Position numbers and translations under genes: made by a program. A stretch of DNA of 64,000 nt from an uncultured Gemmatimonadaceae bacterium. GTDB lineage: Bacteria; Gemmatimonadota; Gemmatimonadetes; Gemmatimonadales; Gemmatimonadaceae. Shown piece by piece: positions 2,610-61,508 of this stretch (position 1 is its first letter; every line of letters starts with the position of its first letter). The notes under the pieces were generated by a model, which ran no database searches, was not told the DNA's origin, and saw nothing but the letters and a program-made list of their open reading frames with translations. The stretch lies in NCBI GenBank assembly GCA_963817955.1, contig CAWFQK010000004.1:1376001-1440000 (forward strand), read 5' to 3'.

Positions 2610-2640
2610 CGAACGCTGAACTTGCCACGCTGCGGATGGG
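2604..2640 (+). repeat. attC left half (truncated)
   Basis: GTTTAAC gaacgctgaacttg; no matching right half before the IS cluster. Confidence 0.6.
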
Positions 2641-2719
2641 CGGCTCACGACCATCACGACCATCATGGACATCTAAGCATGCGCTCCGTATCCGTCGCTG
2701 CTGTCGCGCTGGCGCTCCT

Positions 2720-3092
2720 CGGTTCGGCGGCGTGGAGACCTTCGCGCCGGAGCAGCGCGCCCAGCTCATTCTCGCTCAAGCCGCGCGCTTCGGTCACCAC
2801 GCGGAGCTTCTCCGCGCCCGTCCACCGCTTCTTCTTCTTCTTCGAGGAACCCATGCCCTCGACGTTACGCGCTTCCCGCAGCCATCGCGAGAGAGAGGCT
2901 GACCGACACCGACCTCGTGCGCGAGGGCGTTGGCACTCATCGCCGACGGCCCGATCAAGCGACGCAGCATTCGGTCCTTGAACGCCGGACTGTATTGCGG
3001 CATGACACTACCCACCTTTGACCCCCGAGGATGCTCTACGTTTGACCGCTTAAGCTACTGCGGTCGTACGACAACTATCCTGACACCGGGGG
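2720..3092 (-). pseudogene. IS3-family remnant (orfA, frameshifted and truncated)
   Basis: MPQYSPAFKDRMLRRL...(frameshift)...RWTGAEKLRVVTEARGLSENELGALLRREGL from ATG 3003. Boundaries are approximate. Confidence 0.65.
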
Positions 3093-4248
3093 GTCCGGGA
3101 TCGCGGACGTTAGGTCGCTTGCACCGTCAGTTGCCTTGGATCGTAGCGTTCTCCTCGTTTCCACAGTCGTAACGTGATCGCCGCGAGCTTCCGCGCGAGC
3201 GTCACCCGCGCCAGTTCCTCTCGCATGCCGCGGCTGACCAATCCCTGATACCACTCCCGCAACGCGGCCGTGGCGGCACCTTTGAACACATCCTTCACCA
3301 CGCGGGAGCTAATGTCGAAAGGTGTGGAAATAGACGGAAGGCGGTGACACCTTCTCGGGTGAGCCAATCACCCCCGGGAGAATCCCGGCAACGAAAAGGA
3401 GCCACCGCCCATGAAGAAGATGAAGGATGAGCCAGCCACGTCAAGCGCGACGTGGGACACATTGGAATCCTTTGCCCGGATGCATGTCCAAGGATTCATT
3501 CAGCAGCTGTTGGAAGAAGAGGTGACCGAGCTGCTCGGTCGAGCGAAGTCCGCGCGCCGTGGCGCGGTGGATGCGCCGGCCGGGGCGCGCAACGGGCACG
3601 GGAAGCCGCGGACCCTCGCGCTCATGAATGGGACCATCGTGGTGCGCCGGCCACGGGTGCGCGACCTGGATGAGCTGTTCGTGAGCCGCCTGCTGCCGCT
3701 CTTTCAGCGGCGCACCAAGGAACTGAGCACGCTGTTGCCCGAGCTGTATTTGCATGGCCTCGCGCTCGGGGATTTCGAACTCGCGCTCCGCGGCCTGTTG
3801 GGCGACGGGGCGCCGCTGAGTGCGAGCTCGCTTGTGCGCCTCAAGGCGACGTGGCAGGCGGAGTATGCGGTGTGGCAGCGGCGCGACCTGAGCGCCCTCA
3901 AGCTGGTGTATCTCTGGGCGGACGGCGTGTATGTGAAAGCGGGGCTTGAGCATAGCAAGGCGGCGCTCCTGGTGTTGATCGGCGCCGACGCGGAGGGGCG
4001 GAAACACGTCCTCGCGGTGACCAGTGGCGAGCGGGAATCGGTGGTGAGCTGGACCGCCGTGCTCCGCGACCTGAAGGCGCGCGGGCTCTGCGCCCCCAAG
4101 CTCACGACCCCGGCGGCCACCCAAACTCCCCCACCTGTGGCCACCTCAAAATCCCCCACCCGCTGATGGGTAGCGGCGCCTAATCCGAGGCGCCGAAACG
4201 GCAGGACGTACACTCCTCCTCGACTCTTTTTCGGGGAGTAACCACGGA

Positions 4249-5841
4249 GTGAACGTCTTGAAACCGCATCGACGCATCATGGTCGAGACGCTGCTGGCCA
4301 GCGGCGCGACGCACCGAGAGATCGAACGACGCACGGGCGTGGATCGAAAGACGATCCGCCGGTACGCGCGGGGCCCGGCCCCCAATGCGTCAAACTCCCC
4401 CACCCCGGCCACCGGCTTTGACGAGGCGGTTGCGCAAACTCCTCCACCCCGGCCACCGGCTTTGGCGGAGCGAGACGTCGTCGCGCAGGCGACGGTCACG
4501 GCGCCGACGCCCCGATGGACGCCCTCCGCGTGCGAGCCCCATCGCGCGTGGCTCGAGACCCAAGTCCAACTCGGGCGCAACGCCGTGAGTCTCTACCAGG
4601 AGCTCGTGGACGAGCACGGGTTCACGCATCACTACAACTCCGTCAAACGGTTCGTTGCCACGCTGCGACGGCGCGAACCGGAGCGATTCGATGTCTTGGC
4701 GTACCTGCCCGGCGAGGAGGCCCAAGTCGACTACGGCCAAGGGGCGTTGACGCTGTGGAAGCCCGATCACTACAAGCGACCGTACCTGTTCGTGATGACG
4801 CTCAAGTATTCCGGGAAGAGCTTTCGCAAGGTCGTCTGGAAGACGAATCAAGAGATATGGGCGCGGTTACACGAGGAGGCCTTCCGCACGTTTGGCGGCT
4901 GCCCAGCGTACGTGGTATTAGACAACTTAAAAGAGGGCGTACTCCGACCCGACCTCTACGAGCCCGAGCTGAACCCGGTGTACGCGGCGATGCTCGCCCA
5001 CTATGGCGTCGTGGCGGATCCGTGCCGCGTGCGGGATCCCAATCGCAAAGGGACCGTCGAAAGCGCGATCCAGCACACCCAAGGCACGGCCCTCAAAGGG
5101 AAACGGTTCGCGGCGATCGACGCGCAGAACGTGTATCTCGCGACGTGGGAAGAGCGCTGGGCCGCGACGCGCATCCACGGCCGCAAGAAGCGGCAAGTGC
5201 TCGAGATGTATCGCGAGGAGCAGCCGCACCTTCGCGCGCTCCCGGCCATGCCCATGCAGTACTTCACGCAAGGCACCCGCACTGTCGACGATAGTGGGCT
5301 CGTGCAAGTCAGCGCGTCGTACTACTCGGCGTTACCGGCCGCGCCGACGAGCACGGTCACCGTCCGCCTCTACGCGCGCGAGATCGAGATCCTCGATGCC
5401 GCCGGCCAACTGCTCCGCCGACACGAGATCGCCCCGCGCAAGGGGACCTTCACGATGGACGAGACGGATCGGCTCTTCAATCCCTCGCGCGAGACGGCTC
5501 GCTTGCTGAACAAAGCCGCGCGGATCGGTCCCCACACCGCCGCCTTCGCGCAGCATCTCTTTGCCCATCTCGGCCGGCCGGGCCAACGCGCGCTGTACGG
5601 CCTGACCAATCTCGTCCGCACCTACTCGTGCGCCAACATCGACGCCGTCTGTGCGCGCCTGGTTGCGGCCGAGTGTGTCACCTATGCCGCCGTGAAGCGC
5701 GCCCTGGAACGCACGTGCGCCCCGGACGCGTCGCCCACCCGGCCCATGCTGACGCAGACCGGCCCGGCGATCCGCGCCATCGCTGAGTACCAGGACTTCT
5801 GGGATACGCATTCACACACTCTCCTGCCGGAGCCCCGCTGA
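4249..5841 (+). CDS. istA: IS21 transposase IstA
   Basis: N-terminal HTH; PGEEAQVDYG, VLDNLK and KGTVE DDE motifs. Confidence 0.93.
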   Translation: MNVLKPHRRIMVETLLASGATHREIERRTGVDRKTIRRYARGPAPNASNSPTPATGFDEAVAQTPPPRPPALAERDVVAQATVTAPTPRWTPSACEPHRAWLETQVQLGRNAVSLYQELVDEHGFTHHYNSVKRFVATLRRREPERFDVLAYLPGEEAQVDYGQGALTLWKPDHYKRPYLFVMTLKYSGKSFRKVVWKTNQEIWARLHEEAFRTFGGCPAYVVLDNLKEGVLRPDLYEPELNPVYAAMLAHYGVVADPCRVRDPNRKGTVESAIQHTQGTALKGKRFAAIDAQNVYLATWEERWAATRIHGRKKRQVLEMYREEQPHLRALPAMPMQYFTQGTRTVDDSGLVQVSASYYSALPAAPTSTVTVRLYAREIEILDAAGQLLRRHEIAPRKGTFTMDETDRLFNPSRETARLLNKAARIGPHTAAFAQHLFAHLGRPGQRALYGLTNLVRTYSCANIDAVCARLVAAECVTYAAVKRALERTCAPDASPTRPMLTQTGPAIRAIAEYQDFWDTHSHTLLPEPR

Positions 5842-6608
5842 TGCCGATGTCCATCCCCGAGCTTGAACGCGCCCTCACCAATCTCCGCCTCTCCGGCATG
5901 ACGGCCACGCTGGAAGCCCGCGCGCTGCAAGTGGCCAGTCACGAGATGGGCTTTCTTGAGGCCTTCTCCTGGCTCGTGCAAGATGAACTCGACCGTCGTC
6001 GCTCCCGGCTGCTCGATCGGCGCCACACCCTCTCGGGACTCCCCGACCGCAAGGACCTCACGAGCTTCGACTGGACCTACAATCCGCGCCTCCCGAAACG
6101 CGACGTCCTCGACCTCGCGACGCTCAAGTTTCTTGACGCCAAGGAAGACGTGCTCGTCCTCGGTCCGCCCGGCACCGGCAAAAGTCACGTCGCCAAAGCG
6201 CTTGCCACCACCGCCGTTAGTCGAGGCTACAAGGTGCTCTATCGCGAAGCGCATCAGCTCATCGAAGACATCACCGAGGCGCGCGAGCTGGGAGAGATTC
6301 GGAAACTGCGTGCCCAGATCGCCGCCGCAGACCTACTCCTGGTCGACGATCTCTTTCTGCGCAAGCTCCCGACGACGGCCGGTGACGAACTCGCCGACGT
6401 CCTCATGGCTCGCCACGAAAAAGCGTCCACGATGATCACGTCCAACCGACCACTCGAGGACTGGACGCGACTCCTCGGGGATGTCGTCGTCGTCACCCCG
6501 CTCCTCGACCGCCTGATGCACCATGGCCATTTGCTCAAGTTTGATGGCAAGAGCTGGCGGCTGAAAGAGGCTGCCGCTCGGGCAGCCAAACAGAAGGCAG
6601 CGAACTAA
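5841..6608 (+). CDS. istB: IS21 ATPase IstB
   Basis: Walker A GPPGTGKS, Walker B LLLVDD, ITSNR, LDRLMHH. Confidence 0.95.
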   Translation: MPMSIPELERALTNLRLSGMTATLEARALQVASHEMGFLEAFSWLVQDELDRRRSRLLDRRHTLSGLPDRKDLTSFDWTYNPRLPKRDVLDLATLKFLDAKEDVLVLGPPGTGKSHVAKALATTAVSRGYKVLYREAHQLIEDITEARELGEIRKLRAQIAAADLLLVDDLFLRKLPTTAGDELADVLMARHEKASTMITSNRPLEDWTRLLGDVVVVTPLLDRLMHHGHLLKFDGKSWRLKEAAARAAKQKAAN

Positions 6609-8265
6609 CTTCCCCTCGTCCTGCCGGCCATCAAGTGGAGGAGTTTGACCCGGCCACAGGTGGGGGAGTTTGAGGTGGCCACCGGGGCTCACGATCGCCG
6701 ATGGGCATCTCGGCCTCTGGGGCGCTCTCGCGGCAATCTATCCGACGAGTGCCGAGCAGCGGTGTTGGAATCACAAGCTGCGGAACGTGCTCGACCTGGT
6801 GCCGACGAAACGCCAAGCCGAAGTCACCGTGCAGCTCCAGCAGATCGCCGCGGCGGAGACACAGCGGGCGGCGGAGCGGCTGCGCGACGCGTTTGCCCGC
6901 ACGTACCGTCGCGTGGTGCCCAAAGCCGTCGAGTGCCTCGAGCGGGATTGGGACCGCCTGGTCGCGTACTACGCCTTTCCGCAGGAGCACTGGAAGCATC
7001 TGCGCACGACGAACGTGATCGAGTCTCCGTTTGCCGCGGTGCGGCTCCGCACGACCGCGGCGAAGCGCTTCAAGAAAGTGGAGAACGCCACGACGTTGAT
7101 CTGGAAGACCTTACTCGTCGTCGAACAACATTTCCGCAAACTGAACGCCCCGCACCGCTGCACCGACGTGTACGATGGCGCCGTATTTCACGACGGAATC
7201 TGCACCGTGACCCCGACCCGGGAACGGATCGCCGCCTGACGCCTATTTACACACCAATTGACAAGAGCTCTCACCCGGTTGTGATTGCGATTGAGGCCAC
7301 GCGTCTGCACATACCGCCGCCGGCGGCGCACCGGCCGCTGACCGTCGAGCTCGTACTCGGCACTGGTCCGGGTGACGACCGCGAGGCCCGCGTAGGCCCA
7401 GAGGTGGCGCTTCGTGCGGAAGCGCCAGGGCGTCTGCAGCGTCGCGAGGAGGAGCGCGACCCGCACCGGTCCGAGATACGGAATGCTGCGCAGCCCGGCC
7501 CACGCCGGATCTCGTTTCGCTTCCGCGAGCATCGCCGCCTTCGCCTTGGGGCGTAGCTGCTGCAGGACCGCGAGTTCGTCGTACAATGTCGCGGCCCGGA
7601 ACCGCACGCCCCGCTCCGCCAACTGCTGCAGCCACGTCCGGCGCCGAGCTGTTTGATAGACGGCGGTGCCGGGCGTCTTGATGCCGCGCGCCCGAAACAA
7701 CGCCTTGAGCCGTTGCATCACGCGCGTCGAGTCCTCGACGAGATTGGCATAGGTCCGCGCCAGCTCTTTGAGCGTGGCCCGATCGGCACTGCCATGATAG
7801 ACAGCCCGGAGCCGCCCAGAGCGCAGCAATTCCGACAACTCGTCGGCATCCGGCTGATCGCCCTTGTTGCCTTGCGGGGCTTGTCCGCGCCGGTTGCACA
7901 CGAGGACCCGGTCCACCACGGGCACGAGCAGATCGTGCAGCCACTGCGCCTGCGTGCCTTCCTCAAACGCGACGTGGACGGAGCCACGCATGCCGCGGAA
8001 CCAGTCCACGATCGGCGCGGCCTCCGTTGGCAAAATGGTCCGCGCGATCACGCGTCCCGTCTCCTCTCGCACCGTCGTCCCCGTAGTTGCCTGGTGCACA
8101 TCGAGCCCGACATACTTCAGCGTCCGTTTCATGAGAGCGCCTCCTGGCTGGGAGCTGTGGTTGCTCAACAACTCCACATGACCCGTCAGGGGCGCGCGCT
8201 CAATATCCGTTAGCTCGCCACCTAGTAACGCTTTACGTTATGGGCGGCCAGCGTTATTATTGCAG

Positions 8266-14328: not shown

Positions 14329-14359
14329 GTCTCAGGCCGCTCCGCCCGCGCCGTATAAC

Positions 14360-15025
14360 GAGGATGTAGGAAAACCCTAATTGGCTGGCGAGCCGACCGC
14401 GCCGCGTCGTCGATGCGCGGCGGCGGAACTGGTCAGGCGTGTGGCGGCGGAATGCCGGTGACGACCGTGTTTCGGCGCGTTGTACCCCTCGGAACGGTGC
14501 CCCGCACCTACGCCGCGTACCCGTAGTGTGCGAGTTTCTCGATGTTGTGCACGAGACAGAACAGCTTCCATTGCGTCTCGACTTTGCGGCGGCCGCGCAG
14601 GGTGAAGCGATCGAGCCCTTTGTTGTAGCACAGTTTGCCGAACACCGGTTCCACGGCGCCGATGCGTTCCGCATACCGCCGCCGCCCCTCCGGCGAATCA
14701 ATGCGCCGTTTCATGCGGGCGGTGTGCGACTCGGGCAGCGGGGCCGTCTTGCCCTGGAAGAACATGACGGAGCGCACCTTCGTGGTCGACGGCGTCTCGA
14801 GACACCGGGCGCGCAGGACGCACGGGCCACAGTCGCGTTGCTTCCCCTGAAAGCGCGTCCAGATGTTGTCGCGATTCACCCACTGGGCGCCGCTCCGGTT
14901 GAGCACCTTGCCCGCCGGGCAGATGCACGTCCGCGCCTCGGCGTCGTACGTGCAGGCACTCGCCGGAAACACGGCGGCTGCCTGCACCGGAGCAGGATCC
15001 GCCTTGTCGTGCAGCGGATTGTGGA
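14360..15025 (-). mobile_element. IS1182-family element, copy 1 (partial) inserted after attC R'' GTATAAC
   Basis: IR GAGGATGTAGGAAAACCCT starts right after AAC. C-terminal transposase R...VEPVFG...F.LRG. Near-identical to the start of copy 2. Confidence 0.85.
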
Positions 15026-16174: not shown

Positions 16175-16182
16175 CAGCTAAC

Positions 16183-17802
16183 GAGGATGTAGGAAAACCC
16201 TAATTGGCTGGCGAGCCGACCGCGCCGCGTCGTCGATGCGCGGCGGCGGCGGAACTGGTCTGGCGTGCGGCGGCGGAATGCCGGTGACGACCGTGTTTCG
16301 GCGCGTTGTACCCCTCGGAACGGTGCCCCGCACCGACGCCGCGTACCCGTAGTGTGCGAGTTTCTCGATGTTGTGCACGAGACAGAACAGCTTCCACTGC
16401 GTCTCGACTTTGCGGCGGCCGCGCAGGGTGAAGCGATCGAGCCCTTTGTTGTGGCATATATTGCCGAACACCGGTTCCACGGCGCCGAAGCGTTTCGCAT
16501 ACCGCCGCCGCCCCTCCGGCGAATCAATGCGCCGTTTCATGCGGGCGGTGTGCGACTCGGGCAGCGGGGCCGTCTTGCCCTGGAAGAACATGACGGAGCG
16601 CACCTTCGTGGTCGACGGCGTCTCGAGACACCGGGCGCGCAGGACGCACGGGCCACAGTCGCGTTGCTTCCCCTGAAAGCGCGTCCAGATGTTGTCGCGA
16701 TTCACCCACTGGGCGCCGCTCCGGTTGAGCACCTTGCCCGCCGGGCAGATGCACGTCCGCGCCTCGGCGTCGTACGTGCAGGCACTCGCCGGAAACACGG
16801 CGGCTGCCTACACCGGAGCAGGATTCGCCTTGTCGTGCAGCGGATTGTGGAAGGCTTTGTGGTGATCCTGCGTGGCGAAGCGCTCATCTCGGCGGCGCAT
16901 GTCGTTGTCCGCGATGAGCGCGTCGACCGACATCGCGGCGAGTTGCTGCACGTTCGCGTCGCTGTGGTAGCCTGCATCGGCCGTGATCAATGACTCCGCC
17001 GTGAGCAGTCCTTGCATTGCCGCGACGAAGGGATTCTGCTGGAGCCACTCCCGGACCTGCGCCGCATCGTTCTCCAGGCGCTCGACGCGTTGCTTCTCCT
17101 TCTCCAGCAGCGTCGGCTCCGCCGACAGCTGATCCGCTGCGCGATGGCGCGCGAGGATCGTCTGCGCGGCAGCTTCGAGCTTCGTCGCCTGTCGCTCGAA
17201 GTCGGCGCGCGTCCCGCTCCGTCGCTTCGCCGCGTTGCTGGGGAACTTCACCCCATCGATGGCGAACAGCTCGCGACCGATCAGTCCCTCGGCATCGCAG
17301 GTCGCCACCACGGCCGCGAACACGCGAGCGATGTCATCGCCCACCGTGCTCACGAAGTGCGCGATCGTGGTGAAATGCGGGGCCGTGTCGCCTGAGAGCG
17401 ATGAACGTGACCTGCTCGCGACAGGCGCGCTCGATGCCCCGGCTGCTGATGATCCCATGGGCGTAGGCGACGAGCACGACCTTGAGGAGCATCGCCGGTG
17501 GATACGCGGGCGCGCCGGTGTCGTCGTTCTGGAATCGCTCATCGAAGCGTGGGAGGTCGATCGCGTGATCCAGCAGGTGATTGACCGCGTGTTCGAACGT
17601 GCCCGGAAGCAGTTGGCGCGCGAGATCAATGGCCAAGAACTTCGGATTGGTGTCGATGTACTTGTAGCGAGCCATGGCAGGACACCGGAGGAGGGTCAAC
17701 CGCGATGTGCACAGCGCTCCACGCCCGACGCTTCTTCAACCCGCCAGTTGCTTCGCGAGTCACCTCACCACAGACTCTATCGCAGGCTTTTTCTACAGCC
17801 TC
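16183..17802 (-). mobile_element. IS1182-family element, copy 2 (both ends; transposase pseudogene)
   Basis: IRs GAGGATGTAGGAAAACCCT / reverse complement GAGGCTGTAGAAAAAGCCT; AAC duplicated at both junctions. Transposase from ATG 17675 has GAPAYPP.MLLK, IDGVK and ADAGY, with a frameshift near 17400, an apparent internal deletion and a stop at 16808. Confidence 0.88.
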
Positions 17803-17917: not shown

Positions 17918-18673
17918 ATGACAGTCGGTAGCCAACTCGACCTACGCCACTTCGCGCTGAGTGTTCTCGCATGCGATGCACCAGATGCGACACCTACGCA
18001 GATCTGCGGAACGGCCTTTGCGATAGGAGGCGGCTATTTTGTCACAGCCGCGCACGTGCTTGACACCGTGCTCGAGTCACGCGCTCCCTCTCTTGGCTTT
18101 CTACCAGATCAAGCCCCGCTCGGACCAGTAGCATACTACCAGGCTCCGATCACCCGGCATGAGATCGTGCGAGGCCTTGACCTCGGAATTATCGCGTGTG
18201 CTGGTGGACCCTACGGCACTTTTCAGTGGTTCGGCAGAGATGTTGCCCTCCTGACAAACGTCTTGGCTGGCGGCTATCCGTACGCGCTCGAGCGCGATCG
18301 TTTGCAAGTGTTTGTTCGCGCCTATCGTGGTTCCATCGCCTCAGCGCATCAGATATATCAGCTTCCCGACGAGCCTGGCGGATACGAACTTTCATTTCCG
18401 GCGCCGCGAGGGTTGTCCGGGGCACCGCTGCTACTTCAGCAAATGCCGCCAATTGTGGTCGGCTATATCGTAGAGAATGGCCGCTCTGGCATGCTGGTCA
18501 TGAGCCATCGTGAATCGATTGCTGAATCGTCCTCGGAGACGGTTGTTGAGCAGTATGAGTACCTGACTTACGGGATTGCCGTGAGCTCAAGTGCAGTGGT
18601 AGAGGTTCAGAGTGAGCTGCTGGGCGGGACGATCAAAGATCACTTGAAGCGTCACAACCTATTCATAGATTGA
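17918..18673 (+). CDS. Trypsin-like serine peptidase cassette (no signal peptide)
   Basis: GTAF.IG, TAAHV (His), LDLG (Asp), GYP, GLSGAPL (Ser). Confidence 0.85.
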   Translation: MTVGSQLDLRHFALSVLACDAPDATPTQICGTAFAIGGGYFVTAAHVLDTVLESRAPSLGFLPDQAPLGPVAYYQAPITRHEIVRGLDLGIIACAGGPYGTFQWFGRDVALLTNVLAGGYPYALERDRLQVFVRAYRGSIASAHQIYQLPDEPGGYELSFPAPRGLSGAPLLLQQMPPIVVGYIVENGRSGMLVMSHRESIAESSSETVVEQYEYLTYGIAVSSSAVVEVQSELLGGTIKDHLKRHNLFID

Positions 18674-18690
18674 TTTCGATCCGCGATGCA

Positions 18691-18780
18691 GCATAACGTG
18701 CGTTGCACCAGCCGGGCGAGCTTTGGTAGCTCGCTGCGCTCGCATTTTGTTTGATTCGCCCCCAGGTAAACTCGGGCGTT
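18691..18780 (+). repeat. attC site split at R' by IS110 type B (continues TAGAC at 20341)
   Basis: GCATAAC...ctcgggcGTT|IS. The reconstructed GTTAGAC matches the next cassette end GTCTAAC. Confidence 0.88.
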
Positions 18781-20340
18781 GATATGACTGGGCTGGTGTC
18801 AAACGCTTAGTTCATTCGACGGTCACTGCGTTGGTAGTTGTGATGTAAGTGGATCGTGGAACGACGGGGGGCCGAGGCAGCATCGACGATGAATCCTGCT
18901 GATATGCGCCGGTTGCCGCGACGCGGCAGAGCGGCAAGAATTGGATTCGTCGGGAGCTGGCTCATTCTAGGCTCGGGGATCCCGCTATCACATGGAACGC
19001 ACGGGCCGCCATAACGCCGTCGAGAGTACTCGCACATCGAGCCTCGGCACCGCACGTCGGACCACGATCACCTGGGTCATGCCGCTTGCACCGGCTCGAG
19101 CTCGCGCATCACGGCCCACAGGAAGCCGACGAGTTCGCGCGCCACGGCCACGACGGCGATCTGTGGGCGCTTCCGATAGCTCAGATGATTGTATCGTTGG
19201 TGCAGCCGCTGCTGCGCTTTCCAGGCGTGGGTGAGCACCGCGGGCGGTAGCCCTTGCTGTCGCCGCTTGAGATCGACGCTGATCTGCGGACGATGCCGAT
19301 AGCTCCACGCCGCCTGCACGAGCACATGGCGGCAATGACTGTTGGCCGCCGTCGTGATCGAACCAAGCCGCACCTGATTGCCACTCGAGTCTTCGCGTGA
19401 GACGAGCCCGAGGTAGCAGGCGAGTTGGCGCGGATGCTCGAACCGCCGCCAGCCGACGAACTCCGTGGCCTGCACCATAGCGGAGTACACCGAGATGCCG
19501 CGGAAGCACTGCAACTGCCTCACCATCGGGACGAGCGTTGGGAGTTCGGCGAGCCGCTCGATCTGTCGATCCAACTCCTCGCGCCGCTGCAGCTTGTACA
19601 GCAACAACGCGTGGAACTCTCGATAGATGAGCCGGTCATCCGAGGCGAGCGGCGACCCGTCCGTCGTGAGGTGCTGGAGCCATTGGAGGTGCGGCGTGCA
19701 CCAATTGGTGCCCTCGGGAAACACAAAGCCGCGACGCGCGAGGAACTTGAGGATGTAGTGCCGCGACTTGAGGATCTCGCGTTGAAAGATCTCACGACAG
19801 CGGACGACATCACGGACGCGCTCCTCAGCTTCACTGGGGATGCGCACGGGGACCAGCTCGCCCGCGCGATAGAGTCGCGCCAGGTCTGCGGCATCGCGCT
19901 TGTCATGTTTCCGTTGGACCCCGGGCCGCTTGGGAATCAGCGAGGGCGCGATCACGTCACACGCGTAGCCCCACTCGCGGAGCGCACGATGCAGCACGTA
20001 GCCCGTGCCACTCGCTGGCGTAACAGGCGCGCAGATCGCCGGCCCGGGCTGTCCGTGCCAGCCATTTCTTGAGGACCGGCAAGTCGTTGGTCAGCTTCTC
20101 GAGCCGGGTCGGCGTTGTCGCCGCCGCGGGTAAGACCGCGATGGTGATCGAGTCCTTGTGCACATCCATCCCGAGATGGATGATAGAGGGAGCAGCAGGC
20201 AGCACGACCGAAGGCAGTGATGACATGGGTTGGTCGCCGTGTACGACACGTCGGATCGTCGCAGGTGGCTCTGGGAACTCCGTCTCAACGCGTGAGGAAC
20301 TAATCCACGCTAAGATCGGAGGCCAGCCAGTCATAACTTC
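18781..20340 (-). mobile_element. IS110/IS1111 element type B (transposase 19077-20226, frameshift near 20020)
   Basis: HLGMDVHK, KHDKRDA and YLGLVSREDSSG motifs. Sub-terminal IRs TATGACTGGGCTGG / CCAGCCAGTCATA. About 295-bp non-coding region downstream of the transposase. Confidence 0.9.
18880..19050 (-). ncRNA. Candidate bridge/seek RNA of IS110 type B
   Basis: Stem-flanked loops contain matches to the attC core (TAACGCC 19012-19018; CTAGGC 18967-18972) and to the IS circle junction (AGAATT 18937-18942; CTGATATG 18899-18906). Boundaries are approximate. Confidence 0.6.
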
Positions 20341-20364
20341 TAGACCAACAGAACAGATTCTCCC

Positions 20365-20973
20365 ATGTCTCAGCAGCGCTGTTCCCGGTGCGGAGCCGAT
20401 GTCACGACGCGCGAGCTCCCCGGTTTGGGAGTGCGCGAAGTGCTCGTCGATCGTCCTCGTGTGCTCCACCTGTGCACCGGCACCCCCGGATCATCGCGTC
20501 CGGGGGGTAGGTTAGCGCCCGCGTCAGTCGCCCAGCTCGGTGAACCAAAGGGCATCTCCACGCCCGCCAATTCCGATCCCACAGTTCGCAGGCCAGTGGC
20601 AAAGCAGTGCCGGGAGTGTGGCTACCCCATACTCCTGGTCTGGGACAAGACACGTGACTGCTACATGCCCGTGGATCAGGCCACGCGCCAGCCCCATTCT
20701 TGCCGCGCGAGTGATCTAACCAGAAGTGCCGTTGACTGCCCGACATGCGGAGCGCGGGTGAATTCGATGTTTCATCGTGCATCCGGGAAACGTCGCCTCT
20801 TCACCCCGGATGATAGTACGAAGCTGCATCACTGCATCCCGCCCGAGATCGCCGTTCGTCGAAGCGGCGGCGGCAGCCGGTTGGGGTCAGCGGACGGACT
20901 GCAGTCGTATCAGCGTCCTTCCTCCATCGACTGCACGTGTGAGGGCAGCGGTTGCGCCTCGTGCCGCCGATAG
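20365..20973 (+). CDS. Cys/His-rich multi zinc-ribbon protein cassette
   Basis: Three CxxCG...HxC units plus C-terminal CxCxxxxCxxC; fills the cassette. Confidence 0.6.
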   Translation: MSQQRCSRCGADVTTRELPGLGVREVLVDRPRVLHLCTGTPGSSRPGGRLAPASVAQLGEPKGISTPANSDPTVRRPVAKQCRECGYPILLVWDKTRDCYMPVDQATRQPHSCRASDLTRSAVDCPTCGARVNSMFHRASGKRRLFTPDDSTKLHHCIPPEIAVRRSGGGSRLGSADGLQSYQRPSSIDCTCEGSGCASCRR

Positions 20974-20985
20974 CGTGGCGAGGTG

Positions 20986-21075
20986 GTCTAACGAGCGCTG
21001 AACTTGTCGAGCGATCTATGGAAGCTCGCTGCGCTCGCAGCTTATTGAATTCGCTCGCAAGTTAGCTTTGGCGTT
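20986..21075 (+). repeat. attC site split at R' by IS110 type A (continues GTTAGCC at 22621)
   Basis: GTCTAAC gagcgctgaacttgtcgagcga...tcgctcgcaagttagctttggc GTT|IS. Confidence 0.9.
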
Positions 21076-21229
21076 CTATGAGAGTGATTGTCAAGAGCGC
21101 TCTTCGTGCCGGCTGATCGTTTCACCTTTTTCTTCTTGGCAATCAGCCCCGACTCTTTCCTGGCGCGCGAGACCTTCCGCCGGGCAGTCTGCTTTGGCAT
21201 CGTTGTCCTCCCCGTCACTCCAAGGGTTC

Positions 21230-21460
21230 GATCGGACGTGTGCAAGCGATTGGGTCGCGCGGAGGCGAACCATGGTTCTATCTGAGACTCGGCCGCACGG
21301 GCCGGCCTGTCGCTTATTCGGGTTCTGCGGAAGGGCCTATGGTTAGCCGAGTGCCTCGGCGGGACTGCTTGGCCGGGCGAACGCCCAAGATGAGACTGTC
21401 TTCCGCACCCACGTCCCGAATCCTGGAGCCGAGCGGGGGGCAAACGCCCACCTCACGGCG
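21230..21460 (-). ncRNA. Candidate bridge/seek RNA of IS110 type A
   Basis: AACGCCC (21380-21386) and GTTAGCC (21342-21348) match the two sides of the attC core; GTTCTAT (21275-21281) matches the donor junction. The second donor guide was not identified. Confidence 0.5.
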
Positions 21461-21476
21461 TCCGGGATCGCGGACG

Positions 21477-22544
21477 TTAGGTCGCTTGCACCGTCAGTTG
21501 CGTTGGATCGTAGCGTTCTCCTCGTTTCCACAGTCGTAACGTGATCGCCGCGAGCTTGCGCGCGAGCGTCACCCGCGCCAGTTCCTCTCGCATGCCGCGG
21601 CTGAGCAATCCCTGATACCAGTCCCGCAACGCGCCCGGCCGCACGGACGCGGCCGTGGCCGCCCCTTTGAACACATCCTTCACCACGCGGTTGTGATTGC
21701 GATTGAGGCCGCGCGTCTGCACATACCGCCGCCGACGGCGCACCGGCCGCTGACCGTCGAGCTCGTACTCGGCGCTGGTCCGGGTGACGACCGCGAGGCC
21801 CGCGTAGGCCCAGAGGTGGCGCTTCGTGCGGAAGCGCCAGGGCGTCTGCAGCGTCGCGAGGAGGAGCGCGACCCGCACCGGTCCGAGATACGGAATGCTG
21901 CGCAGCCCGGCCCACGCCGGATCTCGTTTCGCTTCCGCGAGCATCGCCGCCTTCGCCTTGGGGCGTAGCTGCTGCAGGACCGCGAGTTCGTCGTACAATG
22001 TCGCGGCCCGGAACCGCACGCCCCGCTCCGCCAACTGCTGCAGCCACGTCCGGCGCCGAGCTGTTTGATAGACGGCGGTGCCGGGCGTCTTGATGCCGCG
22101 CGCCCGAAACAACGCCTTGAGCCGTTGCATCACGCGCGTCGAGTCCTCGACGAGGTTGGTATAGGTCCGCGCCAGCTCCTTGAGGGTCGCGCGATCGCGA
22201 CTGCCATGATAGACGGCCCGGAGCCGCCCGCAGCGCAGCAACTCCGACAACTCGTCGGCATCCGGCTGATCGCCCTTGTTGCCTTGCGGGGCTTGTCCGC
22301 GCCGGTTGCACACGAGGACCCGGTCCACCACGGGCACGAGCAGATCGTGCAGCCACTGCGCCTGCGTGCCTTCCTCAAACGCGACGTGGACGGAGCCACG
22401 CATGCCGCGGAACCAGTCCACGATCGGCGCGGCCTCCGTTGGCAAAATGGTGCGCGCGATCACGCGTCCCGTCTCCTCTCGCACCGTCGTCACCGTAGTT
22501 GCCTGGTGCACATCGAGCCCGACATACTTCAGCGTCCGTTTCAT
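21477..22544 (-). CDS. IS110-family transposase (intact)
   Basis: MKRTLKYVGLDVH, FEEG and KGDQPDA (DEDD RuvC); YAGL...TSA C-terminal domain. Confidence 0.92.
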   Translation of the reverse strand: MKRTLKYVGLDVHQATTVTTVREETGRVIARTILPTEAAPIVDWFRGMRGSVHVAFEEGTQAQWLHDLLVPVVDRVLVCNRRGQAPQGNKGDQPDADELSELLRCGRLRAVYHGSRDRATLKELARTYTNLVEDSTRVMQRLKALFRARGIKTPGTAVYQTARRRTWLQQLAERGVRFRAATLYDELAVLQQLRPKAKAAMLAEAKRDPAWAGLRSIPYLGPVRVALLLATLQTPWRFRTKRHLWAYAGLAVVTRTSAEYELDGQRPVRRRRRYVQTRGLNRNHNRVVKDVFKGAATAASVRPGALRDWYQGLLSRGMREELARVTLARKLAAITLRLWKRGERYDPTQLTVQAT

Positions 22545-22652
22545 GAGAGCGCCTCCTGGCTGGGAGCTGTGGTTGCTCAACAACTCCACATGACCCGTCA
22601 GGGGCGCGCTCTCAATATCCGTTAGCCTGCAACCCTGCCTCCCAACGGCTCC

Positions 22653-23009
22653 ATGACCACTCGCCTTTCTCTCGTGTTCGCCGTGCTGATCGCCGTAGGT
22701 TGCACCAGCGATTCGGCAGACTCGCATGTCGTTCAAGCCGCGGCCCCCGCCTACTCGGCGGAGCAGCGAGCTTCGACGGAGCTAGTCATGAAAAACGCGC
22801 GGGATATCTGCGCCATCCGCGTCGAAGATCCCCACCTAGTCGTTGAATGCAAAGCTGACATTTCTCACGAGAATCAGCTCGCCTTCGCGCGAGCTATCGC
22901 GGATGCGGATGTCGTCCTCAATGGTTCGCCACGCAACATCTATTTCTACCTTCCTGGCGGAGCACAGTTTGCCCAGGCGGACCCAGTAAACGGGATAAGG
23001 CTGAAGTAG
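22653..23009 (+). CDS. Hypothetical lipoprotein cassette
   Basis: Lipobox-like AVGC after a hydrophobic signal. Confidence 0.65.
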   Translation: MTTRLSLVFAVLIAVGCTSDSADSHVVQAAAPAYSAEQRASTELVMKNARDICAIRVEDPHLVVECKADISHENQLAFARAIADADVVLNGSPRNIYFYLPGGAQFAQADPVNGIRLK

Positions 23010-23027
23010 GACGCATCTCGATCTGCA

Positions 23028-23090
23028 GGCTAACGAACGACGCAGCTGTCAAGGGACTGTCCCACTCGCAGCTGACATTCAGGGGATACC
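23028..23090 (+). repeat. Terminal degenerate attC
   Basis: GGCTAAC gaacgacgcagctgtc...cgcagctgac; no R' GTT. Confidence 0.6.
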
Positions 23091-23263
23091 GCGCGGTGAG
23101 TCGGCTTACGCCGCGGCGGATTTCGTGGTGGTGAGGTTGTGCTGAAGCGCCTGCTTGAGCAAGGGCAAATGGCGATGGTTCTTCGCCCGGCAATACTGTC
23201 GCTCCACGGCCCACAAGGCCGCGGCACCGCTTGAATTGCAGCTAGCCCTGGGACTCCACTGCT

Positions 23264-24814
23264 CTATCGACGCGCCACCGCCGCGGGCTCTCGGCGCCAC
23301 TTGGTCGCCTGCTCGTAGCCATACGCCAGCCTGATCAGCCGCGGCTCATCGAACGCCCGGCCGAAGAACGTCATGCCGGCCGGGAGTGTGTTGTCGCGCG
23401 TATACCCCATGGGCACCGTGATGGCCGGCATGCCGGTGGTCGGCGAAAAGACCTGGCTATTGTCTCCTGCGGGGGTGTTCAGGTCGCCAATCAAACGCGG
23501 CGGGTTGCTCCAGGTGGGATAGATCAGCCCGTCGAGCCGCTCGCGATCCATCAGGCGCGTCACTGCTTCGCGCAGCCCGTCGCGGACGCGCTGCCGCGAC
23601 TGACAACCCGGCGTGGAATCGGGAGGCGTATCGACGCGGTTCGCCGCCTCGAGCCGCGCCTGAATGGACGGATGATAGCGACCGCTGCGTACGATCTCGT
23701 CGAGCGACTTCACCGGCACGCCCGGCCCTTGCGATGCCAACCAGGCATTGAACTCGAACCTGAATGGGTTGCAGCCGCCGCGTCCCGAACGCTGAATCGA
23801 ATCGAGCTCGGGCACGAGAACCGTGTCGATGACCGTCGCGCCGGCGCGGCGCAGATCCTCCACGGCTTTGGCAAAGACTCGCGCAACTTCTGGATCCAGC
23901 GTCGGCCTGTCATACGCCTGGCGAAGGATGCCGATGCGTGCACCCTTGAGCCCGTCGCGCACCAACGAGGCGGCGTAATTCGGCAGCGGCTTGTCCTTCA
24001 CGGCGGCCGTGACCGGGTCGGCGGGATCGTAGCCGGCCACCACCTGCAGCACGGCGACGGCGTCGGCCACCGTTCGGGCCATTGGACCAGCCACGTCGGC
24101 AAAGAGACTGAGAGGAGCCACGCCGCCGCGACTCGTCAGACCCATCGTCGAGCGAATGCCGACGAGGGCGTTGTGCGCACTCGGGCCGCGGATGGAGTTG
24201 CCGGTATCTGTTCCGAGTCCCACTTCACCGAGATCGGCGGCGACCGCCGCCGCCGTGCCGCCGGAGGAGCCGGCCGTCACTCGGTCCAGCGCGTACGGAT
24301 TCTTGGTGTAGCCCGGCAGAACCGAATTCACGGTCTCATATGGGCTGAAGGCGAATTCCGCCATATTAGACTTTGCTAGTACGATCGCCCCGGCCTCTTT
24401 CACGCGTTTCACCAGAAACGCGTCACGCGACGGCGCATACCCTTTGAGGGCGATGTTGCCGACGGCCGTCTGCAGTCCGATCGTCTCGAAATTGTCCTTC
24501 ACGATCATCGGAATGCAGTGCAGCGGGCCAACGAGTTGCCGTTCGGCGGCGAAGCGCCGGTCCAGGGAGTCGGCGATCGCCAGCGCATCGGGATTCACCA
24601 CCGTGATGGCGTTGATTGCCGGGCCATGTTTGTCGAACGCCTCAATCCGACGCAGGTAGTCGTCGACGAGGGCGCGGCAGGTGAGACCACCGCCGCGCAT
24701 GGCAGCATGAATGTCGGCGATGGTCGTCTCTTCCACTGGGAAGGGACGCTGTGCACCGAGAGGCACTGCCGCGGTCGCAAGCAGGGCGAGGGCTGAGAGG
24801 TGGCGTCGAAGCAT
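23264..24814 (-). CDS. Secreted amidase-signature enzyme
   Basis: VKDN, GSSGG, GTDTGNSIRGP; signal peptide. Confidence 0.92.
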   Translation of the reverse strand: MLRRHLSALALLATAAVPLGAQRPFPVEETTIADIHAAMRGGGLTCRALVDDYLRRIEAFDKHGPAINAITVVNPDALAIADSLDRRFAAERQLVGPLHCIPMIVKDNFETIGLQTAVGNIALKGYAPSRDAFLVKRVKEAGAIVLAKSNMAEFAFSPYETVNSVLPGYTKNPYALDRVTAGSSGGTAAAVAADLGEVGLGTDTGNSIRGPSAHNALVGIRSTMGLTSRGGVAPLSLFADVAGPMARTVADAVAVLQVVAGYDPADPVTAAVKDKPLPNYAASLVRDGLKGARIGILRQAYDRPTLDPEVARVFAKAVEDLRRAGATVIDTVLVPELDSIQRSGRGGCNPFRFEFNAWLASQGPGVPVKSLDEIVRSGRYHPSIQARLEAANRVDTPPDSTPGCQSRQRVRDGLREAVTRLMDRERLDGLIYPTWSNPPRLIGDLNTPAGDNSQVFSPTTGMPAITVPMGYTRDNTLPAGMTFFGRAFDEPRLIRLAYGYEQATKWRREPAAVARR

Positions 24815-24908
24815 GGCAGGATAGAGCCTATGCAAAAGGTGCGTCTGAGCCGGGGCGCCCATCGTGCTGCTGTGCCGGCCTCGCCGTATCCGGCGATGGC
24901 GAGGTCGG

Positions 24909-36900: not shown

Positions 36901-37419
36901 CCTGGTCATCCTGAGCGCAAGCGAAGGATCTCTGTGGGCGTATAGACCAGCTGAGCGCAAGCGAAGGATCTCTGTGGGCGTATAGACCAGCTTTTAACGC
37001 AGAGGTCGCAGAGAACTGCAGGAGGTCGCAGAGAACTGCAAGAGAACTGCAGAGAACCGTGAAGGATTGTCTCGCCTGGAAGGCTTGGATGATGCCGTCG
37101 TGAGGCTCCGATGGTATCGCCCAGGTCGGGATCATCAACGATATGGGCGGCCTGATTGTGGACTCGGCATCCACAGTTCATTCCACCGATACGCGCTTCC
37201 TCTTCCGTACGCTTGCAGTTCTCTGTTGCAGTTCCCTTTTCCAGTTTCTCTTTTGCAGTTCTCTTGCAGTTCTCTTTTGCAGTCCTCTGCAGTTCTCCTG
37301 CAGTTCTCTGCGTCCTCTGCGTTAAAAAGCTGGTCTATACGCCCACAGAGATCCTTCGCTTGCGCTCAGGATGACAGGGCTTCGCTCAGGATGACAGGGC
37401 TTCGCTCAGGATGACCAGG
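36901..37419. repeat. Composite palindromic element, copy A
   Basis: Long inverted arms (GTCATCCTGAGC...GAAGGATCTC, AACGCAGAGG, GAGAACTGCA repeats) around core 37057-37210. Confidence 0.85.
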
Positions 37420-37457
37420 CATCGCGTCTCCCCTGTCCCGTGTCATTAGTTTGCGCC

Positions 37458-43240: not shown

Positions 43241-43888
43241 CAGACTGTTGAAAGAGGGCTGGACAGGAGTCAGAAGCTCGAGGGCATGCGCATCACTTCG
43301 AGGGCCGGAACAGCTTTCTACCGCAGAGCGGCCGAACAGCTTTCTACCGCAGAGCGGCCGAACAGCTTTAACGCAGAGGTCGCAGAGAACTGCAAGAGAA
43401 CTGCAGAGGACTGCAAAAGAGGACTGCAAAAGAGGACTGCAAAAGAGAACTGCAAAGAGAACTGCAAAAGAAGACTGCAAAAGAGAACTGGAAAGGGGAA
43501 CTGCAAGAGAACTGCAAGAGCGAACTGGAAGCGTACGGAAGAGGGAAGCGCGTATCGGCGGAATGAACCGTGGATGCCGAGTCCACAATCATTCCGCTCA
43601 TATCGTTGATGATCCCGACCTGGGCGATACCATCGGAGCGTCACGACGACATCAGCCAAGACACCCAGGCGAGACCATCCTTCACGGTCCTCTGCAGTTC
43701 TCCTGCAGTTCTCTGCGACCTCTGCGTTAAAAAGCTGGTCTATCGGTCACCGAGATCCTTCGCTTGCGCTCAGGATGACAGCCCGTCGCTCAGGATGACA
43801 GCCCGTCGCTCAGGATGACAGCCCGTCGCTCAGGATGACAGCCCGTCGCTCAGGATGACAGGCGATTCACTCGTAGTTCAACAGTCCG
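43241..43888. mobile_element. Composite element copy B, MITE-like
   Basis: Ends CAGACTGTTGAA...TTCAACAGTCCG; core in inverse orientation at about 43531-43687; 20-bp tandem CGCTCAGGATGACAGCCCGT about 5 times. Confidence 0.8.
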
Positions 43889-52059: not shown

Positions 52060-52531
52060 CAGACTGTTGAACGACGAGTGAATCGCCAGTCATCCTGAGC
52101 GAAGCGAAGGATCTCTGTCAACGATAGACCAGCCTTTGAACGCAGAGGTCGCAGAGAACTGCAGGAGAACGCAGAGAACTGCAAGAGGACCGTGAAGGAT
52201 TGTCTCGCCTGGAACTCCTGGCTGATGCCGTCGTGATGCTCCGATGGTATCGCCCAGGTCGGGATCATCAACGATATACGCGGAATGATTGTGGACTCGG
52301 CATCCACGGGTCATTCCACTGATACGCGCTTCCTCTTCCATACGATTGCAGTTCTCTGTTGCAGTTCCCTTTTCCAGTTCTCTTGCAGTCCTTTTGCAGT
52401 TCTCTTTTGCAGTTCTCTGCAGTTCTCTTGCAGTTCTCTGCGTCCTCTGCGTTCAAAGCTGTTCCGGCCCTCGAAGTGATGCGCATGCCCTCGAGATTCT
52501 GACTCCTGTCCAGCACCGTTTCAACAGGCTG
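52060..52531. mobile_element. Composite element copy C, MITE-like
   Basis: Ends CAGACTGTTGAA...TTCAACAGGCTG; abuts the mgtE TAG; core at about 52190-52345. Confidence 0.8.
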
Positions 52532-61219: not shown

Positions 61220-61508
61220 GATGATCCCAGCTCTTGACCCCATCACGCAGATGATCCCAGCTCTCAGCTGCGCGACTCCAAGCGTCACGACGGCATCATC
61301 CAACACATCCAGGCGAGACAATCCTTCACGGTCCTCTGCAGTTCTCTTGCAGTTCTCTGCAGTTCTCTGCGTTCAAAAAGTTGTTCTACCGGCCACCGAG
61401 ATCCTTCGCTGCGCTCAGGATGACAGGGAGCGAAAGAGATCCTTCGCTTCGCTCAGGATGACAGCATCGCTCAGGATGACAGGCTTCCCGTGTCCCGTGT
61501 CCCGTGTC
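61220..61508. repeat. Composite element copy D (partial core) plus CCCGTGT heptamers
   Basis: GCGTCACGACGGCATCATCC...CCAGGCGAGACAATCCTTCACGG, TGCAGTTCTC repeats, GAGATCCTTCGC..CGCTCAGGATGAC. Confidence 0.75.

Follow-up and report, generated by a model that had tools for sequence, protein, structure and literature searches.

A 64,000-nucleotide (nt) stretch of DNA from an uncultured Gemmatimonadaceae bacterium (the window, G000:C4:1376001-1440000) holds the cassette array of a chromosomal integron, and the last-but-one attC recombination site of this array is occupied by an insertion sequence (IS) of the IS110 family, here called type A. Comparison with relatives makes it highly probable that type A is an active-looking member of a deep and abundant lineage of the IS1111 type within this family and, jointly with this, that its insertion into attC is guided by an RNA from its own non-coding region. 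The element lies exactly at the GTT of the attC R' box, with GTT at both junctions, as a preliminary description of this DNA had proposed. Its anatomy and insertion point, uninterrupted equivalents of the occupied site, covarying stems in the RNA region and the covariation of guides with flanking DNA are observed directly. The element and its immediate surroundings comprise:

21073-22623, minus strand: type A IS, 1,548 bp plus one extra GTT, delimited by self-BLAST and genome BLAST
21477-22544, minus strand: transposase gene, 355 amino acids (aa), intact, with ATG at 22544-22542 and stop at 21479-21477
20986-21075, plus strand: upstream attC, with R'' GTCTAAC at 20986-20992, an L''/L' hairpin, then ...TTTGGCGTT; its R' now runs into the IS (GTT followed by CTAT)
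22621-23090, plus strand: downstream cassette, beginning GTTAGCCTGCA, a complement of the cassette's own R'' region (23023-23034, CTGCAGGCTAAC)
21240-21425, minus strand: predicted seekRNA/bridge-RNA-like non-coding RNA, with two internal loops closed by covarying stems (RNAalifold)
21380-21391, minus strand: T guide, RNA AUCUUGGGCGUU, 5' side of the first internal loop, reading like the attC top strand ...CTTTGGCGTT
21342-21348, minus strand: B guide, RNA GGCUAAC, 3' side of the first internal loop, complementary to the GTTAGCC R' box at 22621-22627
21275-21281, minus strand: donor-end match, RNA AUAGAAC, in the second internal loop (3' side), with the same sequence as the IS right end ...CATAG-AAC
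21089-21094, minus strand: -35 hexamer TTGACA of a predicted circle-junction promoter, whose -10 partner GATATT lies at 22614-22619, minus strand

The integron is defined by an integrase gene, intI (TIGR02249, 414 bits against a cut-off of 265), at C4:1373441-1374565 on the plus strand, about 1.4 kb ahead of the window, beside a co-oriented attC array that occupies the window from about 1 to 23100. Its attC sites, at 1467-23090 on the plus strand, start with YTAACG... and finish with ...GGCGTTA... Either GTT (21073-21075 or 22621-22623) can be assigned to type A. The junctions of the intact copy read ...TTTGGCGTT/CTATGAGAG at 21075/21076 and ...CAATATCC/GTTAGCC at 22620/22621 (the slash marks the junction), and the CGTT reported for both sides is present at 21072-21075 and 22620-22623. 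Of 70 further genomes from the same taxonomic family, 24 carry homologues of the attC at 20988-21075, at 74-87% identity; four uninterrupted homologues were read and end in ...GGCGTT/AGCG, /AGAT, /AGCC and /AGAC. Removal of the IS would restore ...GGCGTT/AGCC, in exact agreement with these uninterrupted homologues. Among the 57 relatives of type A whose left flank is known, 37 adjoin an R' of the form GTTRRRY, which is exactly GTTAGGC in 28.

The genome holds two further copies, one of them in the same array:

3090-8208, minus strand: second type A copy, in parts 3090-3305 and 7272-8208, 97-98% identical to the intact copy

Both copies in the window terminate in CAATATCC/GTTAG, at 8208 and 22620, as described previously, and the 15-mer CTCAATATCCGTTAG occurs exactly twice (8199-8213 and 22611-22625; 0.04 occurrences expected, and 0 of 100 shuffles reached two). 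The second copy has lost its left 384 bp, including the whole RNA region, by truncation at 3090 and keeps only its right junction. An IS256-like element, in turn broken up by an IS21-like one, interrupts it at 3305/7272. The third copy is an internally deleted stump of 290 bp on contig C3, following the attC GGCTAAC...GGACGTT/CTATGAGAG. When all genomic copies were mapped, three out of three abutted attC sequence and none lay outside, with both junctions visible in the intact copy only. Within the nested elements at 2640-8208, the IS21-like element carries istA (4249-5841) and istB (5841-6608), and the IS256-like element a Transposase_mut gene (3411-4166) with its C-terminal part near 6645-7239. 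A 7-bp overlap at the IS256-like insertion (3299-3305 = 7272-7278) resembles a target duplication, and two short open reading frames (ORFs) without a Pfam match, within 2663-3015, adjoin the truncation point at 3090.

The evidence that type A insertion is guided by RNA comes from the region 3' of the transposase gene. As originally noted, this region holds GGGCGUU (21386-21380), GGCUAAC (21348-21342) and AUAGAAC (21281-21275) on the minus strand in this 5'-3' order, and the view that it contains guide-like segments is borne out by their covariation with the flanks of relatives. The aligned non-coding regions form a conserved scaffold with two short variable stretches that form either side of the internal loop separating stems P1 and P2. 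RNAalifold, run on 55 of 63 distinct sequences (five aberrantly aligned ones and three near-duplicates were left out), predicts 30 pairs, of which 13 show compensatory changes. Stem P1 (GCGGRRG/CYYCCGC) has 22, 14, 10 and 5 double changes, the 22 at pair 38/125, and stem P3 (GAACC/GGUUC) has 18 and 19, at pairs 130/202 and 131/201.

Both variable stretches follow the DNA next to the element. The T guide matches its own site at 9 of 10 positions; in relatives, agreement of the guide with the element's own right flank reaches at least 8 of 10 positions in 40 of the 52. For 50 distinct elements, own sites average 8.26 matching positions of 10, wrong pairings average 5.48, and none of 5000 permutations attained the own-site mean; at one of the uninterrupted attC homologues (L120) the T guide matches 10 of 10. 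The B guide matches at 7/7 here and in 23 of 33 distinct relatives, again with 0 of 5000 permutations reaching the observed mean. Where the left flank departs from the consensus (16 elements, with GCGCAAC, CCGAAC, CGTAAAC and others), the guide departs with it: ten match at 7/7 and five at 6/7. Both guides terminate on GUU/AAC, the triplet present at both junctions. AUAGAAC, in the second loop, is nearly invariant in the alignment and so offers no variation for a covariation test. Guide-flank covariation, covarying stems and uninterrupted sites, by which targeting through a seekRNA or bridge RNA is recognized, are all found in this lineage.

Several results weigh against this reading or narrow it. 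An Rfam scan of 18000-23500 at E <=1 returned no family match, and a single-sequence fold of the non-coding region was no better than shuffles (minimum free energy z = -0.43), so that the case for the RNA is a comparative one. The relatives are kin, and the permutation figures thus overstate significance, the pattern itself being plain by eye. The 5' side of the donor loop was tried as a guide for the left end and rejected, as it matches at 6/10 and ignores a G/C polymorphism there; the donor loop therefore matches one IS end only and leaves recognition of the left end unexplained. A clear attC fold was found at the insertion site in only 21 of 59 evaluable relatives and an R'' complement upstream in only 13 of 58, with 4.8 expected. 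Both detectors are conservative, and some relatives clearly lie outside attC; given these counts, the term attC-specific is true of many members and not of the whole lineage. Among public sequencing runs, four soil-metagenome runs contained only small shares of the stretch, and no RNA run was listed as containing it. Their contigs hold short pieces of relatives and no joints, and they give no evidence on circles or empty sites.

Two other searches contributed little. An energy z-score test for attC at the sites of relatives was discarded as uninformative, the minimum energy favoring long spans. When the type A genome itself was searched for sites matching both guides, none was unoccupied at <=1 mismatch; at <=3 mismatches there were 384 two-guide sites compared to 636 for a reversed-pattern control, from which nothing follows.

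Family placement rests on the transposase and on the layout of the element. At 355 aa, the protein is in line with its homologues (354-359 aa), and the earlier judgment that it is intact stands. It combines the N-terminal DEDD/RuvC-like and C-terminal Transposase_20 domains of the IS110 family (Pfam PF01548, DEDD_Tnp_IS110, 42.1 bits, cut-off 29, 9.7e-11; PF02371, Transposase_20, 38.4 bits, cut-off 21.3, 1.7e-9) and scores 117 bits with NCBIfam NF033542 (IS110 RNA-guided transposase), under the 140-bit cut-off. A short left end (76 nt, 22545-22620) and a long stretch of non-coding DNA behind the gene (404 nt 3' of the stop, 21073-21476) follow the IS1111 layout given in PMC11187229 (this and the other papers are cited from excerpts). 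IS1111 elements have subterminal inverted repeats, usually of 11-13 bp within a range of 7-17 bp (PMC11208160), and their terminal extensions are asymmetric. Those of type A, TGAGAGC[G/A], are 7-8 bp long, at the short end of this range; they are conserved in relatives, and 9 nt separate the left one and 5 nt the right one from the junction AA. The ends themselves are conserved as well and read, in transposase orientation, AAC-G[G/C]AT[A/G]TTGAGAGC... on the left and ...CCCTTGACAATCGCTCTCATAG-AAC on the right. The C-terminal motif of type A is GLAVVTRTSA, and GLAVVxxx[S/T]A is found in 96 of 122 proteins examined, as against GL-P----S/T-G in IS1111, for which occasional TA variants are mentioned (PMC11187229).

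The lineage is both distant from plasmid-borne elements and widespread. Among 72,556 plasmid records, the best tblastn identity was 28%, and the matches at 95-96% coverage, including an ISAzs32-family gene, were only about 26-27% identical. One hit on a Klebsiella plasmid (H66) was considered as an ISKpn4-like reference and rejected, as it lies outside any integron. In protein searches, 6,212 of 8,000 scored candidates had E <=0.001, and the best 120 listed were 75-92% identical. A one-genome-per-species scan gave 80 loci, 54 in Gemmatimonadota (with Longimicrobiales), 18 in Acidobacteriota/Thermoanaerobaculia, 3 in Myxococcota and 5 not placed in these groups; an integrase gene lies inside the fetched flanks of 3 of the 80. 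In one case (L032:3540-4100), roughly 120 bp separate the end of a type A relative from the 3' end of the integrase gene, where attI is expected, and its T guide matches this site at 8/12; this may be a sub-lineage tuned to attI. The type A genome also carries two more IS110-family transposase genes side by side (C2:1119670-1121797), unrelated to type A, or to the type B element introduced below, at the level searched.

Type A very probably inserts by an RNA-guided route of the IS1111 kind. The element would excise as a circle, joining the right-end TTGACA to the left-end GATATT and thereby building a promoter. The predicted TTGACA-17-GATATT arrangement across the circle junction was confirmed in its spacing, and this geometry is conserved in all 43 relatives with both ends, whose -35 sequence is TTGACA in 32, TTGACG in 10 and TTGACC in 1. 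With a spacer of 17 nt, the -10 sequence is GATATT (17), CATGTT (11) or CATATT (9) in 37 of the 43. A search of the linear element for a sigma-70-like promoter found none. The predicted junction promoter fits, in its geometry, those known for the IS110 family. The 3' non-coding region would be made into an RNA of the seekRNA/bridge type and processed. The 10-12-nt guide in its first loop would pair, immediately upstream of the attC GTT, with one strand, and the 7-nt guide in the same loop with the other strand across GTT plus four bases, that is, the R' box. The two guides would overlap on the GTT/AAC triplet, which would also be present at the circle junction. At this triplet, the DEDD transposase would recombine circle and target, so that GTT flanks the element on each side and nothing else is duplicated. 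The guide for the attC body would be free to mutate, so that each sub-lineage could become tuned to the attC family of its host, and a few sub-lineages would have drifted to sites that are not attC-like. Circle formation, promoter activity, RNA processing and catalysis are predicted for type A.

We also considered other ways in which the copies could have come to occupy their present sites. The claim that type A had hit the same attC GTT twice holds at both junctions of the intact copy and at one junction of the second; as the latter is truncated at 3090, what is seen amounts to one full and one half junction. The loss of the left junction means that independent insertion of the second copy is unprovable from both sides, and both copies might instead derive from duplication or recombination of an array segment. 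This is very improbable: the sequence to the right of GTTAGC diverges immediately (CTGCAACC versus TCGCCACC), the cassettes downstream of the two copies are unrelated, and the stump on contig C3 occupies a third, different attC. A different proposal is that IntI excises and reinserts the IS together with the downstream gene as a composite cassette, through a still usable upstream attC, and that some copies were placed in this way. Insertion exactly at the G/TT cassette boundary does leave the attC body in one piece, and the AAC/GTT pairing invoked for the upstream attC is retained in a predicted bottom-strand fold in which the L stem and an R stem of 4 bp (AACG/CGTT) form. This hybrid site keeps R'', both L boxes and the GTT and differs in the four distal R' bases, AGCC having become CTAT; by a crude finder, natural attC sites of the array form only 2-3 of the 4 distal R-box pairs, versus 1 plus one G-T in the hybrid. 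Since the fold is kept and natural R boxes are themselves imperfect, IntI might still use the hybrid site. However, its R' is GTTCTAT and not GTTRRRY, and the attC that closes the composite cassette and the array (23026-23090) shows R'' GGCTAAC plus an L hairpin and lacks a recognizable GTT R' box, which would make 21073-23090 a poor substrate for excision by IntI. Moreover, the upstream flanks of relatives match their own guides, as RNA-guided insertion predicts, whereas relocation by IntI would tend to break the match; these good matches argue for the arrival of most copies by RNA-guided insertion of their own. We regard placement of copies by IntI as unlikely. The broader scenario is doubtful to the same degree: the lineage, and type B (described below) either independently or not, would have taken the integron crossover triplet as its recombination core and would occupy a cassette slot, leaving the upstream attC whole, forming a composite that IntI can move and tracking the attC of its host through its guide. 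If this were true, type A would be a parasite of integron shuffling and not a mere disrupter of attC sites.

A second element of the array bears on the origin of the targeting habit that we ascribe to RNA guidance in type A:

18781-20337, minus strand: type B IS of about 1.55 kb; its subterminal inverted repeats are 14 bp long (TATGACTGGGCTGG), and it lies after ...CTCGGGCGTT of the preceding attC

The type B transposase gene is frameshifted, its C-terminal part belonging to the IS110 family by Pfam. The TTGACA noted near the end of type B (as TGTCAA, 18797-18802) indeed lies at a similar distance, 16 nt, from its end as the 13 nt in type A. A sample of 301 genomes from the phylum gave relatives of type B in 24 (its own genome counted); in the nine elements with both ends, the repeats are 14 bp and the junctions read ...GCG-TT-GATATGAC and ...CATAAC-TT-CTAGRC. 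The preliminary description held types A and B to be divergent lineages that converge on one attC target. The divergence is real, and the two occupy the same attC position in the same orientation, a pattern indistinguishable, as regards convergence, from old shared ancestry. Descent from a single attC-targeting ancestor is an alternative to which we give somewhat less than even weight. Both types share the IS1111 layout, the orientation and an upstream half-site ...GGGCG-TT, and a ...CUCUC/GUCUC motif precedes a guide in each. Yet protein identity is only 23% over 176 aa, the two types have different subterminal repeats (7-8 bp versus 14 bp), and the right half-site of type B is CTAGRC where a normal R' has AGRC, a difference that is unexplained. 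Presumed type B guides follow the flanks in three of the nine elements with both ends. The downstream side of type B always reads ...TT-CTAG(G/A)C (loci L085-L108) and its RNA carries CCUAGAA; the type B target therefore seems to be CG-TT-CTAGRC, two bases longer than the normal R' (GTTAGRC). No free CG-TT-CTAGRC site was found among the 10 CGTTCTAG sites of the type B genome, which is also that of type A.

The cassette genes of the array are the usual small ones (HicA, DUF4160/DUF2442, MazE-like proteins and hydrolases). The cassette downstream of type A has an ORF at 22653-23009 (118 aa) without a Pfam match, and the end of the array abuts a convergent amidase gene (23264-24862). The intI gene shares its strand with its cassettes (C4:1373441-1374565 = L001:7441-8565); in the classical clinical integron classes, the integrase is divergent from the cassettes. 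Two neighboring stretches of the array, 14356-14699 and 16179-16525, are 94-100% identical, which suggests a duplicated cassette start. Sites of the same attC family lie outside the main array at C1:50024-50115, C1:52714-52766, C4:490670-490699 and C3:124700-124800 of the genome, and these may be satellite clusters with no integrase nearby. Window-wide attC finders were of limited use, one being too strict (0 hits) and the other too loose, with many false sites in GC-rich coding DNA. A composite repeat with at least five copies (window 36911-37435, 43365-43860, 52134-52457 and 61281-61360, and L001:8870-9290) is built from 20-nt tandem units (GCTCAGGATGACAG...), a palindromic stretch and short repeats of the CTGCAGTTCTCT type. 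One copy sits between intI and the first cassette, and the repeat looks like an element akin to a miniature inverted-repeat transposable element.

The closest known counterparts of type A are the IS1111-attC elements ISPa21, ISPst6 and ISKpn4, and more distantly ISPa25, described by Tetu and Holmes (2008) and by Post and Hall (2009). The seekRNAs of attC-targeting IS1111 elements were demonstrated experimentally in 2024 (Siddiquee et al., PMC11187229), for IS1111 elements, bridge RNAs have been predicted to lie in the right end (Durrant et al., 2024, PMC11208160), and IS1111-group transposases have been counted among environmental cassettes (PMC11089894). Type A shares with the IS1111-attC group a DEDD transposase and site- and orientation-specific insertion into attC, antisense to the cassettes (PMC3001079): its transposase gene is on the minus strand, opposite to the attC sites and intI (plus strand). 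It also shares a 3' non-coding region for a seekRNA, a predicted one in type A, with matches to the target's top and bottom strands (PMC11187229), and the order of these matches, the top-strand match 5' of the bottom-strand match, is common to type A and the IS1111 layout described there, along with the non-coding region and the subterminal repeats.

The differences from this group lie in position, sequence and host. According to Leon and Roy, IS1111-attC elements are antisense to the cassettes and lie "near the 5'-end" of attC (PMC3001079, in the excerpts available); type A does not lie there, and in both types the insertion is at the GTT of the 3' R' box, which is the crossover point of IntI. 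In protein, type A is at most 28% identical to any of the plasmid records compared. The known hosts are Pseudomonas and enterobacteria, whereas type A is found in metagenome-assembled genomes of Gemmatimonadota, Acidobacteriota and Myxococcota. Compared to IS1111 elements more generally, type A has repeats of 7-8 bp instead of the usual 11-13, GLAVVxxx[S/T]A in place of GL-P----S/T-G, and a donor loop that matches one end only. As in the seekRNA of ISEc11/ISPa11 (PMC11187229) and the bridge RNA of IS621 (PMC11208160), the two sides of a loop appear to pair with opposite target strands and to overlap at the core. A promoter built by circularization is common to the IS1111 seekRNA and IS110 bridge systems and is predicted for type A, and the guides that can be re-tuned in those systems vary naturally in type A; unlike them, type A falls under every Rfam and NCBIfam cut-off. 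Group IIC-attC introns are likewise RNA-guided, specialized for attC and antisense to the cassettes, but are retro-elements with another mechanism and lie near the 5' end of attC (PMC3001079).

The literature searched on IS1111-attC elements, IS110 and integrons, bridge RNAs and attC, and Gemmatimonadota contains no description of the R'-triplet landing position or of the type A lineage; the founding papers of 2008-2009 may show cases. The present work adds a large lineage of soil phyla to the known attC-targeting IS1111 elements. Landing at the R' GTT, the IntI cut point, means that the attC is not torn apart, which changes the expected effect on the integron: upstream cassettes may stay mobile, with the IS sitting in the place of a cassette. 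In addition, about 50 natural guide-target pairs provide a rule of one 10-12-nt and one 7-nt guide, together with the mismatches tolerated, that could inform programmable IS110/IS1111 recombinases. Altogether, type A is a new deep branch and a new landing position of a known attC-targeting habit, not a new kind of system.

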